From positions 1-39,415 of the IMG/VR virus record IMGVR_UViG_2778261630_000006: a stretch of DNA of 39,415 bases; one strand, given 5' to 3'. Positions 289 through 11,104 of the stretch are shown here, piece by piece. The translations under genes were made by a program, and so were the position numbers. The notes under the pieces were generated by a model that did no database searches, was not told the DNA's origin, and was given only the letters and a program-made list of their open reading frames with translations. The stretch comes from a virus (lineage: Duplodnaviria; Heunggongvirae; Uroviricota; Caudoviricetes). How positions within the stretch are numbered: the first letter of the stretch is position 1; every line of letters begins with the position of its first letter.

Positions 289-2874
289 CTACTCTATCTC
301 TTTTGCTTTTTTAATTATCAATTCAAGCTCTGTTAAACGAGATTCAATACGTTCACACCTTCTTCGCTGGAATGCAGCCTCCAACCACAAACATTCATCT
401 GGACGCAATCCCCAACGCTCACCAGCATGTACAACCAGTTCCGTGTCACCAGTATCGTATTCTTCAAAGTATTCGTGAACGATGTCTTCTCCTTCAGGGG
501 ATTTAGCTATAAATGACACCTTGCGCTGTGCCATTACAGGTTGGTACTCATCATCCCATTTATCATGACATAGCAAGCCAAATCTTGTTCCATCTATCCC
601 CTTTGCAAGAAACGCATCTCTTACCTGCTGTGCAATTGCTCCGAAATGCCAACGAGCAGTATCCGAACCTTTAGCCTTAATATCGGACAACCACTGGTAA
701 ACGATAATATTTACGTCACCCCATGCGTCAAGAATTGCATCCTGATCCACCTCCATGATTTCTGAAAGTTGCTCTACTGTCAGTGGCTTTGTTTTCAATG
801 TCTGGTCTGAAGTATTTATTGCCCCATTAGTTGCATATACTTGCGTCCACCGTTTAGATGATGTCCCACATGATGACGTATTATCTTTATTAGCACTTAT
901 ATAGCCATTAACCTCCGCTGACTGACCGATATACGAATATGAAGATGTTGATAAGGGAGATTTAAATATCCATTGAGCATTGGTAAAGTCATAAATACCG
1001 GTATCACCTTTTTCACTAACATGAAAAGTTACATTCCGTAACGTATTCTTTGCATCATAACGGGCGGCTTGTGTTGTTGCCCTCGAAACAGTGAATCCTT
1101 TGTCATCAAGGTTTGCCTGCTCTATGACTTCACCACCAGGCATAATTTTACCAAGGCTTAACAAACCAGAGTTAGTGACAATATCATGGGTTGAATCAAT
1201 GATAATACCAGGCTGATTTCTTGATGTTGTTTTTACATGCATGACCTGTTGTGGCATTAATGTGTAAAATGTAGTTTCTCGCCCACTATCACCATCTGGT
1301 ATGCCATTTGTATTCCCCATTACAAGGTCATACCCACCTGCAATCATACGGAAAAACATTGCTTCTGGTTCATATGTAAGATTGCTAACATCTGGCGTTC
1401 CGGTATCATTTGGATCTGCTATTTCATAGGCTCTTCCTGCACCTGCCTGTATTTGCTGCACCCCAAGATAAACACCATCAAGTGTGTACTGATGCAAATA
1501 TTTTCTGGTTGAAGAATATGCAGATCCAGCCTGACAAAAATAAATAGCAGTACCGTCACACGCAACTGTTTGCATATCCCTCACAAAATCGGCAATTTCA
1601 AATTCAAAAGTTGCTTCATTACGATAATCGTAATTGTACGCCTGCGGGTTAATAAATTTGCTGGTATCAAATACTTTTACATAATAGCGAATTTGATCTG
1701 GTGTTGATGGGCTCTCACCAGGGCCAACATAACGTTTTGCTGTAGTAATCAGCCATCGACTCATAGGGTCGGTGCATAAAACATTTACCTGATTCTCGTA
1801 ACCATCTTCCCATATGAGAAAAAACTCTGGTTCAATTTCACCACCATCAGTAGGGGTGAATCTGGTGATATACTTTGCGCGATCCTCTCCTTTAGCTGTG
1901 CCAGCTAACCCCCATATCTGTAACTGGCCTCTTGTGTTACGAAAACCAACGCGCCCTATGGTTAAACCAAGACATTGATGTCCTAATTCTCTACTACCTT
2001 TAGTCTCCCAAAGAGGAGTTAACTCTTCATTCCCAAACCAATTATAAGCAACAACTTTATTAACTTCGTCACCAGAACTAACGCTGCCACTCACATTTAC
2101 CAAGCAATAAAGAACACTGTCATAATAATCAAGAACAGCACCCTGTATGACAGTATTTTTAATTGTTGCCAGTCGCAACCCTGACTTAACATGATTAGGA
2201 GTAGAAGGTCTGAAACCTGTATACATCCCCTTTTTTATAGTTTGTATTCTTTTTTCAGTAAAATCAGCATCTGGCAGTAATCGATTCTCTGTGCGAAAAT
2301 AGCCATTTATATACTTATTTCCATCAAAAACTTGATCTGTTATATATGTATTACCCCTTAGATCAACAATCCTTCCTGTGATTTGTTTTTCTAACTCTTG
2401 AAAAGATAATGTGTCATCGGTGATGCCATCACCTTTTGCTCCCCATCCGCGAGGGTCAGCGTCATCACGCCACCGAGACATCTGCAATTCATGATATTTT
2501 TTAGCACCTTCCGGGTCTTCTAATTGTTGTCTTAATTGGTCAGGATCGTACTTAAGCACATTCGGAAAATAGAACTGCTGCGTACCATATGCATCGTAAA
2601 CAGCCATAGAATGGCCTTGCACGGTAACGAATTTGGAAATCTGTCCGTTGTATACCGGGTATCCAGCAGCATTGATAACGATTGGCTGTGGCACCTGAAC
2701 ATAAGTACCATCTTCTCGTTCCAGATATACTGGAATCTGGTTTTCTGGATTTACCGGATCTGTGTCAATCTTACCGATATAAATTTTTCCATTTGCTACG
2801 GTTTTAAAAGAGCTAGCCATTGTGAAGAGTTGCGATGGCATACCTATCACAACATTTGGGGTTATATCAGGCAT
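289..2874 (-). CDS. Tailspike: P22 gp9-type head-binding N-terminus, pectate-lyase-like beta-helix body, C-terminal chaperone-like domain
   Basis: N-terminus MPDITPNVV...[21 protein letters not shown]...VLKYDPDQ matches the P22 tailspike N-domain. [11 protein letters not shown] motif downstream. C-terminal HFGAIAQQ segment. Start set at the second in-frame ATG (2874), which has an AGGA ribosome-binding site; the ORF extends in frame to 2967. Confidence 0.8.
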
Positions 2875-3216
2875 ATTAGTCATCCTGTTTGAAGATTTAG
2901 ATATTGAAGAAAACGGAATGACTGCAGACAAAGATGCAATTGTTTTGAAAAATAACCTTCTATTCATTTAAAAACCATGTAACATGAACAAAACGATTAT
3001 TTTACAATACTCAAGAATCTTGATCAACAGGCATATTATTTATGCGCTTAATGCGTCACTTACAAAAATAAAAACAAGTAATACCTTTATTCCTATCGTC
3101 CATGATTTTTATTTTCAAACATTATTAAATAACAATTCCCATTTATAATATCTGTCATTTAATTTGCTCCAGATACAAGGAATCTCCGCAGCATGGCTAC
3201 GGTGAATTTTGGGCAT

Positions 3217-3258: not shown

Positions 3259-4137
3259 TCAGTAGTTATGTACTGAAGGAGGTAATTCTTTATTCTTAAG
3301 TCTCATCCATGCGGAAAGATTCGTTGGTCCGTCTGGCTCATTGATATCAACATCTCGTGTGTGATTGATTAAAACGTCTCTCGCCATTCCGATAACATAC
3401 GAGAATTCATGACCGTAGTCGTAGCATCTGCCGGAATAGTTCGATTGAATTTGTTTTAATGCCGGATACAATTCGCGGAATAATGCCTGTGAACGGTTGG
3501 CATAATCCCATAGCCATACAAGGCTGTTTGCTTCTTTTGCAGAAAGCTCGTTGGTTTTCTTATCTTGTTTGCCAATGAACTCACCTTCAAGCACTACCCT
3601 GTGGATGTACTCTACGGCCAGCGGGATTTGTTCAATTGAAAGTTCATCAATGCTGTCAATACCAAAACGCTGATGAACCATATTGTATGCATCGTCATAG
3701 CGAAGTCCTTTCTTTCCTACCAGCATGTTTACTGCATCGCGTAGCGGTGTTCTTTCCTCAACAGTGGTTTTCTTGCCTTTCACATACTTGCCATGTTTGC
3801 GAATTGAAGGCAGAACTTCTGCTGTTACCCACTTGCGGAATTTGTGCGGGACTGAACCTTTATTGACGGCATCGCGGCAGCGCAGAACCAATGTATACAT
3901 ACCTGACTCGCTCACAATGCTTAGATTCTGCTCACCACCAAGGGTGTAACTTAAAGTTACTCCCTTTTCATCGTCATCAAGTGCAGTAAGCGCCTTGCGT
4001 GAGTTAGTCAAAGCTAAAGCATCACAAACATCTTTAGCTACAAACCACGGCTCGCCGCACTTGTTAATTACGCGGATTTCACTGTCGCCAAATTTGAAGA
4101 TGGTGAAATCGTTTTGTGCCTTTGCTATACTTTTCAT
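3259..4137 (-). CDS. ant: Antirepressor Ant
   Basis: Position after arc as in P22 immI; recognisable antirepressor sequence. Start at internal ATG 4135-4137 with AGGAAAT ribosome-binding site. Confidence 0.85.
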
Positions 4138-4205
4138 GTCAATATTTCCTAAGACGATTTGTTGATACCGAAGCCCTGACTGTTCCCGCAGTTGGGGCTT
4201 CAACT
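4138..4205 (+). ncRNA. sar: Candidate sar-like antisense RNA across the arc-ant intergenic region
   Basis: Extended -10 (TGcTATACT, 4123-4131) on the plus strand just inside ant; 13-bp hairpin with UUCC loop at 4170-4201 immediately after the arc stop. Ends not determined. Confidence 0.35.
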
Positions 4206-4367
4206 TTACGCGCCAATGCGTCCTTCCTTCTTAAAACTTTCCATTACTCTCTGATAAATCTCAGAGTTAACAGACCGACCATTCTCTTCCGCCACCTTGC
4301 GCACCAAATCCAATACTTCTTTAGGCCACCGCAAATTGAACTGCGGCATTTTGCTCATTCCTTTCAT
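4206..4367 (-). CDS. arc: Arc repressor (ribbon-helix-helix)
   Basis: Translation [53 protein letters not shown] is essentially P22 Arc. Confidence 0.92.
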
Positions 4368-4383
4368 ATTCACCTCACAATAT

Positions 4384-4400
4384 GGGTCCACGGTGGACCT
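4384..4400. promoter_or_regulatory. Mnt operator (Omnt)
   Basis: Near-perfect dyad GGGTCCACGGTGGACCT in the arc-mnt divergent region, matching the P22 mnt operator as recalled. Confidence 0.65.
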
Positions 4401-4409
4401 ATTGAGAAT

Positions 4410-4430
4410 ATAGTAGAGTGCTTCTATCAT
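4410..4430. promoter_or_regulatory. Arc operator (Oarc) overlapping Pant
   Basis: ATAGTAGAGTGCTTCTATCAT matches the P22 arc operator as recalled. Confidence 0.65.
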
Positions 4431-4457
4431 GTCAATACACTAACTTGGAGTGATGGC

Positions 4458-4712
4458 ATGGCTAGAGATGATCCGCACTTTAACTTCCGCATGCCTTTGG
4501 AAGTAAGAGAAAAATTAAAATACAGAGCAGAGTCAAACGGTAGATCAATGAACTCAGAATTGTTGCAAATCGTCCAAGATGCTCTATCGAGACCATCTCC
4601 TGTAAAAGGTTATCGCAATGAAGCTGAACGATTAGCCGAGATGCAGGCTGAACAGTTCAAGTCTGTGGTATTTGAGACACTTAAAAACATGTATGGCAAG
4701 GATGCAAAATGA
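4458..4712 (+). CDS. mnt: Mnt repressor (ribbon-helix-helix)
   Basis: Translation MARDDPHFNFRMPLEVREKLKYRAESNGRSMNSELLQIVQDAL... matches P22 Mnt. Confidence 0.9.
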   Translation: MARDDPHFNFRMPLEVREKLKYRAESNGRSMNSELLQIVQDALSRPSPVKGYRNEAERLAEMQAEQFKSVVFETLKNMYGKDAK

Positions 4713-5290
4713 TCGATTACAACCCAGCAAAAAAAGAAGTCATTGCAGCTAAAAAGTGCCTAGAGCAGATGAAATCATCTACAAACCATGATGATTTTGA
4801 AATGCACTGGCGAGAATGTCTTGGGCATATAGAAAAGTCTTTCAGTAAGTTGCTCTGTGCAACAAAGCCGGTTAGTGGAAAATTTAGCAGCCACTTCAAC
4901 CAAAAGTTCATGCTTAGAAAAACAGACAAAACCCTTGCTTACCTTCACCAAGCAAGAAATGCTGATCATCATTCCACTATGGAAATCTCAAAACTTGAAC
5001 CTCCTTATACTACTCTTGGGGCATTTCCGGGAGCAAGAAGCCATTATATTAAAGAGTTAATCATTGATTCAACAGGTAAAATAGCAAAATACGAAGGCGA
5101 CCCTATGATAGTTGAGTTTCATCCAGCAACAACTATGCCTATAACCGTAAGAAACCAAGGCAAAGATTATCCACCTCCAACAGAACATCTTGGCGAAAAG
5201 CTTGTTGATATACATCCATCTGTTCTTGCCTATCTCGGTATACAATTTTATGAAAAATGGATAGATGAGTCGTGTGCAACGTTTAGATAG
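4709..5290 (+). CDS. Hypothetical protein, translationally coupled to mnt
   Basis: ATGA overlap with the mnt stop. 193-codon ORF in an AT-rich segment. No family recognised. Confidence 0.6.
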   Translation: MIDYNPAKKEVIAAKKCLEQMKSSTNHDDFEMHWRECLGHIEKSFSKLLCATKPVSGKFSSHFNQKFMLRKTDKTLAYLHQARNADHHSTMEISKLEPPYTTLGAFPGARSHYIKELIIDSTGKIAKYEGDPMIVEFHPATTMPITVRNQGKDYPPPTEHLGEKLVDIHPSVLAYLGIQFYEKWIDESCATFR

Positions 5291-5457
5291 TTATTTTTGA
5301 TAATTTCAAGTATTTCCTCTTGACTTTGATTTACCCAAACGTGATCACACTCATGAAACCAGATTATGCTTCCTGTTTCGCCTTGTGCAATATAGGTGAT
5401 CATGTTTTCATTAACAATTATTACTGAGTTATCATGTGCGCAATTTAGTTTTATCAA
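5248..5457 (-). CDS. Possible small convergent ORF (69 aa)
   Basis: ORF overlaps the 3' end of the 4709-5290 gene by 43 bp. Weak ribosome-binding site. Could be spurious. Confidence 0.2.
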
Positions 5458-5519
5458 TTCGCATATCCTATCGTGACAAAGTAACTAGAAAAACTAAAGA
5501 GGTTGGTGTGTCTGATTCT

Positions 5520-6002
5520 ATGAGTTACGCTGTGCTAGTTGCCGCAACTCTATTTATTGGGATAGGGTTGCAGATTGCGTGGTTCTTTTTCTCTAGTTTT
5601 ATTAAACGCAAAAGAATTGAATCAAGGATATCTGAGATTTCTATTGCTATAGGGAAAAATGCTGAAAATTCAGAGAATGAGGCCTGCGCACTGAATTACC
5701 TTAAAGAAAAGTTTTCCCCTGAAAAATTTGAAAATAGAATTACTGATGCTCTTGGATTGGTAATATCAGTAATTCATATGCCACTAAGTTTGCTGATAAC
5801 AGTGTGGTACTTCGCCATGATCGCCGGAAGAATATTTGGCTTCATGAATATAGAGCCTGTAGTTCTTTGGGTTCCAATGATACTGCAACTGTTGTTAAGC
5901 GTTGCTATCTTTATTTTTTCTGTTTTTATAAAAATTGTCTTTGGAAGATACCCCGGAGAAGCGAAGGGATTTAATAAAGAATTCATAAAAACTATAAAAT
6001 AA
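5520..6002 (+). CDS. Inner-membrane protein at the position of P22 sieA; candidate superinfection exclusion protein
   Basis: About 160 aa with an N-terminal transmembrane segment and a C-terminal hydrophobic cluster. Sits between gp16 and mnt. Start is ATG 5520 or upstream GTG 5508 (AGAGG ribosome-binding site). Confidence 0.55.
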
Positions 6003-6024: not shown

Positions 6025-7866
6025 CTACTGCCGGGTCGCTTCGTTAGCTAAGAGCGGGCGCACGGCAGTAGCCGCCTGATTTAGCGCTCTTTCATAGGCT
6101 GGTGTTCCTGCTTTGGTGTTTGCCAGACGTAAGAGCGCATTCCTTGCTGCTTTGGACTCATACAAACGCATCATTGCACCAAAACCAGCCTCAAGCCCCA
6201 TTGATACGCCAAGAGTCGCGGTTGCGCCAATCGTCCTTATCCTGTTGGCTTGCGATTGCCCCGTCTGAGTTACTACATTTGCGGTGTCTGACCTTGCTGT
6301 TTGCTGTAGAACTTCATGAAGAGCATCAAGCTCTTTCATATGCTTTCCAGAAAAAATAGTGTTGTAAATTTCACCACCTGACTGAGATTTCAGCTTATTA
6401 ACTTCAGTGATGAACTTGGCTGGAGAGTCACCGGCCTTTTCCGCTATTTTGCTGACGTAAGCTGCACGCATAGCATCTTTACCCTTATCATCCAATGCGC
6501 TCCAGATTCGTTTCACGTCAGATGGTTTTCTGCTTAATACAACGGTATTTATAAGTTCAGGGCTGGCTTCACTACTTGCCTTATTGAGCTTGTTAGCAAT
6601 GTTTTTATTAAGCACCTTATTATAAACGTTTGCATAATCGGAATTTGCTTTAAGGTATTTTGCTGCGTCTGATGCACCGAGGTTTTTAGCAACTGCGTTA
6701 CGAAGATCTTTTGACATTGCATTCTCTACCATATTGGTAGCTGCTTTTGCCTGGTTGGGGAAGACCATAGCATCTCCCTGAACATTAGATCGAAATGCTG
6801 TTCTGTGCTGACGCAAGAGATCAAACGTAACCTCCAAATCAGTTGCAGGGTTTGCTAATTCTTCACGTAGGTTACGTAAGGATGTAAGCAGGCTTTGATT
6901 GGCAGACGTCCCAAGCCGTTCCTGTCTTGCGATCGCTGTATTCAGAGCATTCATGGTATTTGTGGTATCAACTGCGGCATTACCCATTTTATTGGTGACG
7001 TCATTGATAACAGCGCCAGCGGCATCCTTCCGACCCCTTAACGTGGTGGTCAGAGATTTCACCACATCATCCGGGTTGTACTCACCAAAACGGTCAAAAT
7101 AATTACTTACCAACTTACTACGCGTTGCATATTGCTCCGCTCGCTTTGAGCCTGTCCCGAGCAAAGCCCCCTCGGCATCCTGAGTAAGGCCGCGAGTGAA
7201 AGCATTTTTCGGCGGGATAACATCAGATGTCATTGGTGTCACGCCCATCGATTCTGAGGTGGCAATTTTTTTCGCTACTTCTGGCGCGATATCGCCTTTT
7301 ATAGCCGTTATTCCACGCCCTATTCCCTTTGCTGCTGCGGAAAGAACACCCTGAGCGGCAAGGTTAACTCCGGCGTTTATGGCTGCATTTTGCGCGAAAT
7401 CACCTTTCTGGTTTGCGGCTTCTGCCAGTGATCCAATAGCCATGTTTCCTGCCGTTCCAACTCCTGGAACTAAATACCCGCCAATTGTTTCTCCAGCTTG
7501 CGCATAAGGGTCTGTTGGTCGATCTACTGGACGATAGACATCGTCCAAAACCTTGGGGCCACCAAGCCCCTGGCTGATTGCATTAATCAGACTTGCGCCA
7601 CCCTGCAATACGTCAAATGGTATGTTTACCAGACCACGACCAGCCTGTTCTGCAATTTGCCCTGCACTTTGACCACCAGTGAGCCAATCGCCAGCTTGTT
7701 GCATCAATGATGGTTCTTCACGTGCTGGTTCATTATTGACCTGATTAACTGTTTGTTGCTGAACAGCCTGACCAGCAAAATACTCATCAATGGCGGTGCC
7801 AATATCTTCCGTGCTCGTACCATCAGGGAAGGTAAATGTCTTACCGTTTGCAGTTACTTTCATCAT
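6025..7866 (-). CDS. gp16: Ejection (internal virion) protein, P22 gp16-like
   Basis: 613 aa at the gp16 position of the P22 late gene order. Confidence 0.8.
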
Positions 7867-10403: not shown

Positions 10404-11104
10404 CAGTCAATCAGCCCATGTAATCTAAGTGCCGTTTCAAGCGCCAGAATACGCTGCCGCGCCTGCTGCAAACCTGTAGCGAGAGCGGCGACTTCGGATT
10501 GCGTGTACGTAGTGCCGACAGTGTATGACTGGTTAGCGTTGAATGAGCCAAGAAGAGGTGTACCTGTGGCTGAAGTCCATCCGGTATTTCTTGCTCCAAC
10601 AACCTGAATTCCATCAACTGAATATGATGTTTTTACATCCAGCGGTGACGCAAGAGACTGCGATTCTGTTACGGTTTTCGATACGTAATCACTCTTAATG
10701 CCAGAGACATCGTTTTCTACGTCATCCAGTCTTTGGTCAACAGTGACCAGATGCCCCTGAATATCGATAACCTCATCCAGCAAGTAATCAACATCGCTAC
10801 GCAGTACGACTATCTTCCCTTCGGCGGTTGTTAACCTGACCTCAAGGAGATTTATCGCTTTTGTGTTTGCGGTGATTCTTGCATCGTGGTCAGCCAGTTC
10901 GACATCCTGTTCATCGTTTTTTACTTGGGCATCATAAGCGCCCTGACCAGCCTGATTTGCCTTTCCAGCAATTGCACCGACATCAGCCCCCTGATTAATG
11001 ACATACAGCAGGTAAGACTGGCTGAAGATATTGCGTGGAAGGATTGATGTATCGAGCCGCGTCGCCTGAACAATAACCGGTGTGTTGAGATTCGAATCAG
11101 CCAT
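10403..11104 (-). CDS. gp26: Tail needle, P22 gp26-like
   Basis: 233 aa; conserved N-terminus [25 protein letters not shown] and C-terminus ALRLHGLID. Confidence 0.9.

Follow-up and report, generated by a model that had tools for sequence, protein, structure and literature searches.

A predicted HEPN-like protein encoded in an exchangeable cassette between mnt and sieA of an Escherichia coli P22-like prophage

Ribonuclease (RNase) domains of the HEPN superfamily are four-helix up-and-down bundles with an Rx4-6H motif at the end of helix 3, in which the residue following the conserved arginine is "mostly N, D or H", and many but not all of the families also have an acidic residue in helix 2, typically within an Ex3[KR] motif (PMC3710099). 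Small proteins of this kind are encoded by prophages: HepS, a solo HEPN protein of the Salmonella prophage Gifsy-1 that acts by abortive infection, is produced constitutively in a form that is inactive until tail-tip proteins switch it on (PMC13043305), and Tha, encoded by S. aureus prophages, is likewise made constitutively, its activity off by default until structural proteins of the incoming phage trigger it (PMC11087260). SieA of the P22 type is a protein of the inner membrane and prevents P22-like phages from injecting their DNA; mutations that escape it map to the ejection proteins gp16 and gp20, and location between genes 16 and 9 of a P22-like prophage is a stated criterion for its type A (PMC10883804). 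Here we analyse a stretch of 39,415 nucleotides of viral DNA (IMG/VR record IMGVR_UViG_2778261630_000006, the whole of which we call the window), an E. coli P22-like (Lederbergvirus-type) prophage in which a 193-residue protein gene, orf193 (4709-5290, + strand), lies between mnt and sieA, with a small gene of opposite orientation, orf69, across its 3' end. We propose that the orf193 cassette encodes a HEPN-type RNase effector, acting in abortive infection or as a toxin, that would be expressed in the lysogen beside SieA, an explanation to which we give about an even chance of being right on the basis of sequence comparison and a predicted structure.

The orf193 family and its predicted fold

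Over its whole length orf193 matches phrog_23516 (E 1.4e-119), a PHROGs family of unknown function, and this was the only model found for the protein itself, as Pfam, NCBIfam and PADLOC contained none. A word-indexed search of 5.8 billion proteins yielded only seven relatives, and a hidden Markov model search of 1.84 billion cluster representatives yielded 1,773 at E <= 1e-3, of which 1,296 reached E <= 1e-10. With few exceptions the family members have 170-210 residues and match end to end, and every name given to them in the sources is "hypothetical protein". Among longer relatives checked for domain fusions there was only one with a weak N-terminal match to DUF6941, which was uninformative, and the RefSeq accessions of orf193 are absent from the searchable papers and from the DefensePredictor supplements. 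The first-pass annotation of this DNA, made from the sequence alone, had assigned orf193 to no recognisable family; this stands in that phrog_23516, without a function, is the only family matched, but not in that the protein belongs to a large family with a HEPN-like signature.

To follow conservation we aligned 125 diverse family members, whose identity to orf193 ranges over 23-60%. Five residues are invariant in all of them (W34, Y78, R83, H88 and P157) and six others (R70, D73, L75, L76, A82 and H160) are conserved in at least 90%. The AlphaFold2 model of orf193, built from the 125-member alignment with a predicted local distance difference test (pLDDT) score of 96.6 and a predicted template modelling (pTM) score of 0.88, comprises helices at residues 5-23, 27-51, 60-88 (kinked at 73) and 170-192 and eight short strands between 94 and 154. 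The helices form a four-helix up-and-down bundle of two alpha-hairpins, as in the HEPN definition, and the motif R83-x4-H88 is placed at the C-terminal end of the third helix (helix part 74-88). Exactly four residues separate R83 from H88 in all 125 sequences, and position 84, just after the arginine, where orf193 has N, is occupied by N in 68 sequences, by D in 28, by H and G in 14 each and by S in 1, which makes N, D or H in 110 of the 125. Weak matches of 7 of the 125 to the PADLOC model RTasHEPN point the same way. With moderate confidence we regard orf193 as HEPN-like, short of a proven member of the superfamily, and we infer from the modelled fold and motif that it is an RNase. The beta-rich insert that follows the motif (residues about 93-146) is the least conserved part of the protein, with 1.31 bits per column against 2.33 in the region of the helix-3 motif, and stands where Csx1 has a smaller beta-hairpin (PMC3710099); its variability suggests that it would suit a specificity or sensor module.

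With HepS and Tha, orf193 shares the description of a small prophage-encoded protein in cargo position, often partnerless, with expected expression in the lysogen and an R-x4-H motif on a HEPN-type bundle, which for orf193 is a predicted one. It differs from both in the beta-rich insert of roughly 60-80 residues after the motif and, in some phages, in a small convergent partner gene. The likeness is one of function and description, with no detectable sequence relationship of orf193 to any solved chain. The LT2 Gifsy-1 record contained no candidate with R100-x4-H105, that is, no hepS. Compared with the HEPN superfamily at large and with the HEPN-MNT toxins (PDB 5yep, 7ae2 and 8xdj), orf193 gave no profile-level match and has a large insert between the motif and helix 4. 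The adjacent "Mnt" is an unrelated ribbon-helix-helix repressor that happens to share the acronym of the nucleotidyltransferase partner in type VII HEPN-MNT systems; no nucleotidyltransferase adjoins orf193, nor was one present beside its relatives in any context examined, so that orf193 does not qualify as a HEPN-MNT toxin.

The HEPN-like signature fits an abortive-infection or toxin role better than exclusion at the membrane, and the cassette has further traits of mobile defence cargo, namely the lowest GC (guanine plus cytosine) content of the window, swapping among prophages and low-GC solo relatives at several sites. In the mechanism that we favour, orf193 would be a soluble, metal-independent RNase, made continuously in the lysogen and kept inactive either intrinsically or by orf69, which would act as its modulator. 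Infection by another phage would switch it on, probably through the variable insert, and the activated protein would cut tRNA, rRNA or mRNA and so abort the infection; SieA, independently, would block injection by P22-like phages. The first-pass annotation had singled out this segment as the best candidate in the window for a superinfection-exclusion or abortive-infection module. The exclusion locus is there and SieA is present in it; the role of orf193 is a predicted one and is separate from that of SieA.

An exchangeable cassette between mnt and sieA

The gene upstream of orf193 is mnt (4458-4712, + strand), which encodes the ribbon-helix-helix repressor of Pant; its 84-residue product is 79% identical to P22 Mnt and matches the Pfam families Arc (PF03869, E 2.8e-27) and Repressor_Mnt (PF11423, E 3.4e-11). 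The divergent promoters Pmnt (+ strand) and Pant (- strand), with their Mnt and Arc operators, were located at 4402-4435 by alignment to P22, where this region is base for base the same as the annotated P22 promoters and operators, and a promoter scan read TTGAGA-17-TATCAT on the + strand and TTGACA-17-TATATT on the - strand. The stop codon of mnt (TGA, 4710-4712) and the start codon of orf193 (ATG, 4709-4711) overlap as ATGA at 4709-4712, with an AAGGA Shine-Dalgarno sequence for orf193 at 4698-4702, in keeping with the translational coupling that had been proposed for the two genes. In P22, Pmnt drives mnt in the lysogen and the annotated mnt terminator is positioned after orf59a. Because Pmnt is conserved, orf193 is coupled to mnt and its slot corresponds to that of orf59a, upstream of the P22 mnt terminator, the gene is placed for expression in the lysogen, as the first-pass annotation had also suggested, and the best explanation of its arrangement is that it would be translated from the prophage-active Pmnt by coupling to mnt.

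The P22 mnt terminator and the sieA promoter PsieA are both absent from the window interval in the alignment to P22. Between orf193 and sieA we found no terminator, no structured RNA (RNA fold z-score 0.00) and, in a promoter scan, no convincing promoter, the best having only 8-9 of 12 matches. Since neither a terminator nor a convincing promoter separates the two genes, sieA may be read from Pmnt, and its transcription probably comes from such read-through or from an unrecognised promoter.

The limits of the inserted DNA were drawn from the loss of P22 homology and from the comparison of prophage copies, which place a mobile low-GC cassette with the orf193 and orf69 region at ~4672-5507. In the alignment to P22 the two sequences are nearly identical from the promoters into the 5' part of mnt; similarity decays in the 3' part of mnt and is lost at ~4700-5489; nucleotide identity of ~95% resumes exactly at the ribosome-binding site of sieA, from 5490 onward. 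In P22, orf59a, the mnt terminator, some 320 bp and PsieA make up this interval, and the cassette takes the place of orf59a, the terminator and the promoter. Copies of segment 4650-5520, 98.8-99.5% identical to it, are present in 21 complete E. coli genomes out of 5,426 and in 14 IMG/VR contigs. At the left break, near 4672, identity among the copies starts about 37 nucleotides before the mnt stop codon, so the last ~12 mnt codons travel with the cassette, and the right break, at ~5510, coincides with the start of the next gene. In the prophage copies compared, which are 98-99.5% identical over the segment, the cassette is joined to differing mnt alleles on the left and to differing genes on the right.

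Genes found in the sieA position beside the cassette, other than sieA, encode a 122-residue phrog_2651 protein, a phrog_10450 protein, a 129-residue protein together with YobH, and a 106-residue protein. Such alternative genes lie at 3880-4248 in L022, 3765-4157 in L023, 2344-2950 in L028 and 2630-2950 in L031 (L numbers denote loci that carry orf193 relatives or copies of the cassette); the phrog_2651 protein has a signal-peptide-like N-terminus and the phrog_10450 protein a single transmembrane segment. Four or more other genes thus stand in the sieA position beside the cassette, so that orf193 and SieA do not make up a single module. Judged from these copies, the orf193 and orf69 region is one mobile unit and SieA a separate, interchangeable neighbour, and the sieA position is a further slot for exchangeable cargo, with products that, SieA apart, are uncharacterised.

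The membrane protein itself, encoded by sieA (5508-6002, + strand, 164 residues), is 91% identical to P22 SieA. Read from GTG 5508, 150 of 164 residues are identical in a gapless alignment (E 7e-113), and the product covers residues 1-164 of 164 of phrog_7745, "SieA-like" (E 2.3e-107). Its place in this P22-like prophage, with the gene 16 homologue to one side and the gene 9 homologue to the other, is the one stated for type A. Its identity by homology and its mechanism by the literature are therefore those of an ordinary type-A SieA, like that of P22 (Leavitt et al. 2024, PMC10883804), with which it shares the gene 16/mnt interval. It differs in that the P22 sieA promoter is not conserved in the window, where the orf193 cassette abuts the sieA ribosome-binding site, and in that the host of the prophage is E. 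coli and not Salmonella. Three starts are available to the reading frame that ends at 6002: GTG 5508 (164 residues), ATG 5520 (160 residues) and GTG 5436, the one chosen by the Prokaryotic Genome Annotation Pipeline (PGAP), which gives 188 residues. The 24 extra codons of the PGAP form (5436-5507) are upstream cassette sequence, are absent from P22 and are prefixed in the L023 prophage to a non-homologous protein. Because they belong to the cassette and precede a non-homologous protein elsewhere, we take the 188-residue form to be an annotation artefact and the real start to be GTG 5508 or ATG 5520.

These results correct the first-pass description of a membrane protein in the sieA position: the protein is there and ends at 6002, and it is simply SieA. 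Full-length homology of both proteins to characterised P22 proteins had been named as the finding that would speak against a candidate defence module, and it was obtained for the membrane protein (SieA) only. The same annotation left open whether the two genes were a sieA/hkcC-type pair or something new, and here the sieA half proved known and orf193 proved not to be of the hkc or orf59a kind. P22 orf59a and the HK620 hkc genes occupy the same slot, between mnt and the sieA position, but have no sequence similarity to orf193: the P22 alignment showed none across the slot, and the idea was dropped because tblastn of orf193 against 50,697 phage records gave no match at E 0.01.

The relatives of orf193 found beyond P22-like prophages are solitary low-GC genes at sites typical of cargo, often with the opposite orientation. 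At least three other temperate phage types carry such genes (L050, about 3970-4579; L066, 8001-8585; L068, 1122-1880). In a further enterobacterial phage group they lie between the lysis cassette and a 485-residue protein gene (L049-L063), with a GC content of 0.41 for the gene and 0.51 for the loci. The L066 relative follows gpD and lysozyme where a P2-like prophage ends, the L068 relative lies downstream of a siphovirus-like prophage's tail-fibre genes, and the L004 relative adjoins the tailspike at a prophage end. In Mesorhizobium (L076) the relative and a small open reading frame (ORF) form a pair beside a head-tail cluster like that of a gene transfer agent, in Vibrio rarus (L064) the relative adjoins ParE/Phd, and in Alphaproteobacteria relatives adjoin insertion sequence elements. 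At L019 (1328-2157) a 63%-identical relative overlaps by 4 nucleotides the gene of an 83-residue ribbon-helix-helix protein that is 23% identical to Mnt; this contig has no recognisable P22-like genes, its neighbours being a fragment like the C-terminus of UmuC and a 210-residue membrane protein. No ribbon-helix-helix gene stands upstream of the relatives in L004, L008, L020, L046-L068 and L076, and pairing with such a gene, as expected of a type II toxin-antitoxin system, is not conserved across the family.

In the window as a whole, the immI-region gene order is that of P22: tailspike (289-2967, - strand), ant (3259-4203, - strand), arc (4206-4367, - strand), mnt, orf193, sieA and gene 16 (6025-7866, - strand), the last an ejection protein gene by P22 synteny that PGAP names "DNA transfer protein". 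The first 24 kb match E. coli chromosomes, at identities reaching 98.8% over 81% of their length. Outside the cassette, the sar antisense RNA (4139-4205, + strand), which overlaps the arc-ant junction, matches the full Rfam model RF00262 with 73.4 bits (E 1.2e-14) and is an ordinary element of the P22 type. The GC content of 4709-6002 is 0.364, against 0.471 for the whole window, and is the lowest among 763 sliding windows of 1294 bp (mean 0.471, standard deviation 0.037); the first-pass annotation had called this segment more AT-rich than its flanks, which at the 1294-bp scale holds to the point of its being the minimum of the window, and had seen accessory cargo in a known exclusion locus of P22-like phages, which is also borne out. 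The stretch 2100-3150, made up of the tailspike-ant spacer and the tailspike gene's 5' part, is likewise very AT-rich (GC 0.28-0.38) and ranks just behind the mnt-gene 16 segment among the lowest-GC stretches.

Convergent partner genes and alternative explanations

The gene that we call orf69 (5248-5457, - strand) encodes a 69-residue protein, converges on orf193 and overlaps its 3' end by 43 nucleotides, as the first-pass annotation had noticed, and it is part of the cassette. An AGGA Shine-Dalgarno sequence (5469-5466) stands 8 nucleotides before its TTG start; the start codon (5455-5457, - strand) is polymorphic, TTG in the window and ATG in L024, L026 and L033. PGAP leaves the gene unannotated. 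In the siphovirus-like prophage at L068, a phage unrelated to that of the window, the relative of orf193 is 52% identical, and a 65-residue ORF that is 37-40% identical to orf69 converges on it, with an 18-nucleotide overlap of the 3' end. The Smith-Waterman score between orf69 and this ORF was 66, against 24 +/- 4.4 for shuffled sequences, none of 20,000 shuffles reaching 66, and the similarity holds for the non-overlapping part alone. The L068 ORF begins with AAGGA-N7-ATG just after a terminator-like hairpin, and the L068 pair has a GC content of 0.37 within a locus of 0.52. Because a homologue occurs in the same convergent, overlapping position beside an orf193 relative in an unrelated phage, we conclude from these comparisons that orf69 is a real gene, co-inherited with orf193. 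A PDB profile search with orf69 returned nothing useful; against FlbD (PF06289) the L068 homologue scored 15.1 bits (E 0.018), below the 24.7-bit cut-off, and orf69 itself had no match.

Other relatives of orf193 have other convergent neighbours or none. In the alphaproteobacterial subfamily another conserved small ORF is convergent and overlaps the 3' end of the orf193 relative at eight loci (L010, L011, L013, L015, L016, L017, L047 and L076; for example, 4506-4715 on the - strand in L013 and 10603-10788 on the - strand in L076); it carries the motif TPEMIEAG..ELRE...G..AEVV.DVF.AM and is unrelated to orf69 (hhalign probability 0.2%). A partner common to all relatives was also considered and rejected, the downstream convergent ORFs of L004, L008, L019 and L020 being unrelated to orf69. 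Across the loci compared, orf69 is a facultative partner, absent from L008 and L020 among others.

These partner genes bear on a different explanation, in which orf193, as an RNase toxin, would form an addiction pair with orf69 or with an antisense transcript across the 43-nucleotide overlap and would serve to stabilise the prophage or the cassette and not, in the first place, to act against phages. Co-inheritance of the two genes, at 52% and 37% identity and with the same convergent overlap in two unrelated phages, argues for such a pair, as do the different convergent ORF of the alphaproteobacterial subfamily, partner swapping being typical of toxin-antitoxin systems, and the presence of ParE/Phd among the neighbours. 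We nevertheless hold it unlikely: orf69 is missing beside most relatives (L004, L019, L046, L049-L063, L064, L066, L074 and L075), and therefore the protein must be tolerated alone; a convergent protein antitoxin would be unusual; and toxin-antitoxin and abortive-infection roles are not mutually exclusive.

The absence of orf69 from most loci is also one of several results that weigh against the HEPN effector explanation itself. Pfam and NCBIfam were null for orf193, for its 125 relatives and for their consensus; the PDB profile search of the family returned no HEPN chain and indeed no solved chain at all; Foldseek of the orf193 model against the PDB gave E 1.9 as its best value; and the PADLOC model RTasHEPN was matched only weakly, by 7 of the 125 family members with a best E of 0.0019, so that none of the Pfam, NCBIfam, PDB, Foldseek and PADLOC searches gave a significant match to an established HEPN family. 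The optional acidic residue of helix 2 is only partly conserved: of the two candidates, position 31 (E31 in orf193) carries E or D in 95 of the 125 sequences, with K or R at position 35 in 53, and position 42 (E42) carries E or D in 82, with K47 in 99 and a spacing of x4 instead of x3. For orf69, we found no promoter, and its frame has accumulated 0 synonymous and 4 non-synonymous changes in near-identical copies. As a word-based search moreover returned only copies that are at least 94% identical, we had first judged orf69 to be probably spurious, a judgement that the L068 homologue reversed.

The lack of a significant match to any HEPN model favours a further possibility, that orf193 is no nuclease and that its R-x4-H motif, with H160 and D73, serves ligand or metal binding in a lysogenic-conversion or regulatory factor, and so does the second strongly conserved motif of the family, P157-x2-H160-L-G, which is not a described HEPN feature. 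However, the invariant spacing of four between R and H, the N, D or H after the arginine and the position at the end of helix 3 together match the HEPN definition, and the spread of the family over many phage types argues against a role specific to immI, and for these reasons we consider a non-nuclease function quite improbable. Least probable of all, and hardly to be expected, is that Mnt and orf193 are a functional pair, type II-like, with the ribbon-helix-helix protein as antitoxin or dedicated regulator of the toxin downstream: the 4-nucleotide overlap is indeed kept with every Mnt allele seen (78, 82, 83 and 84 residues), the last ~12 mnt codons move with the cassette and the L019 relative is coupled in the same way to a different ribbon-helix-helix gene, but relatives in other phages and in chromosomes have no such gene upstream, Mnt has a separate known job as repressor of Pant and is present in P22 without orf193, and the coupling may simply reflect the insertion slot.

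Two cargo slots in the immI region

The HEPN-type effector explanation is thus the one that we carry forward for orf193, and the best explanation of the locus is that the mnt-to-gene 16 interval comprises two independent cargo slots that would be expressed in the lysogen. The analysis establishes the gene structures, the size and conservation pattern of the family, the modelled fold, the mobility of the cassette and the conservation of the gene pair; the RNase activity and anti-phage role of orf193, a role for orf69 beside it and read-through of the mnt transcript into sieA are what we infer. A bolder proposal, which we advance tentatively and consider rather doubtful, is that orf193, with or without orf69, would be a new and widespread HEPN-type anti-phage system, carried as swappable cargo in at least five temperate phage lineages, in which the insert would sense a phage component and release the RNase, with orf69 as an antitoxin or regulator of a novel sort; the Mnt operon would in that case serve for defence as well, producing both orf193 and SieA from Pmnt.

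The SieA half of the locus adds nothing new beyond another E. coli example of type-A SieA. The orf193/orf69 half would be a small prophage HEPN effector from a family that has no name, model or literature in the sources examined. If the proposed role is true, a family of more than 1,700 sequence clusters, all of them "hypothetical", would gain a function, and orf193 would represent a third type of small prophage-borne HEPN defence protein after HepS and Tha, distinguished by its built-in beta-rich module and, in some phages, by an unusual convergent partner gene. The immI region of P22-like phages would then be a hotspot for defence genes in which both of two slots take interchangeable cargo, under the promoter of the maintenance repressor Mnt.

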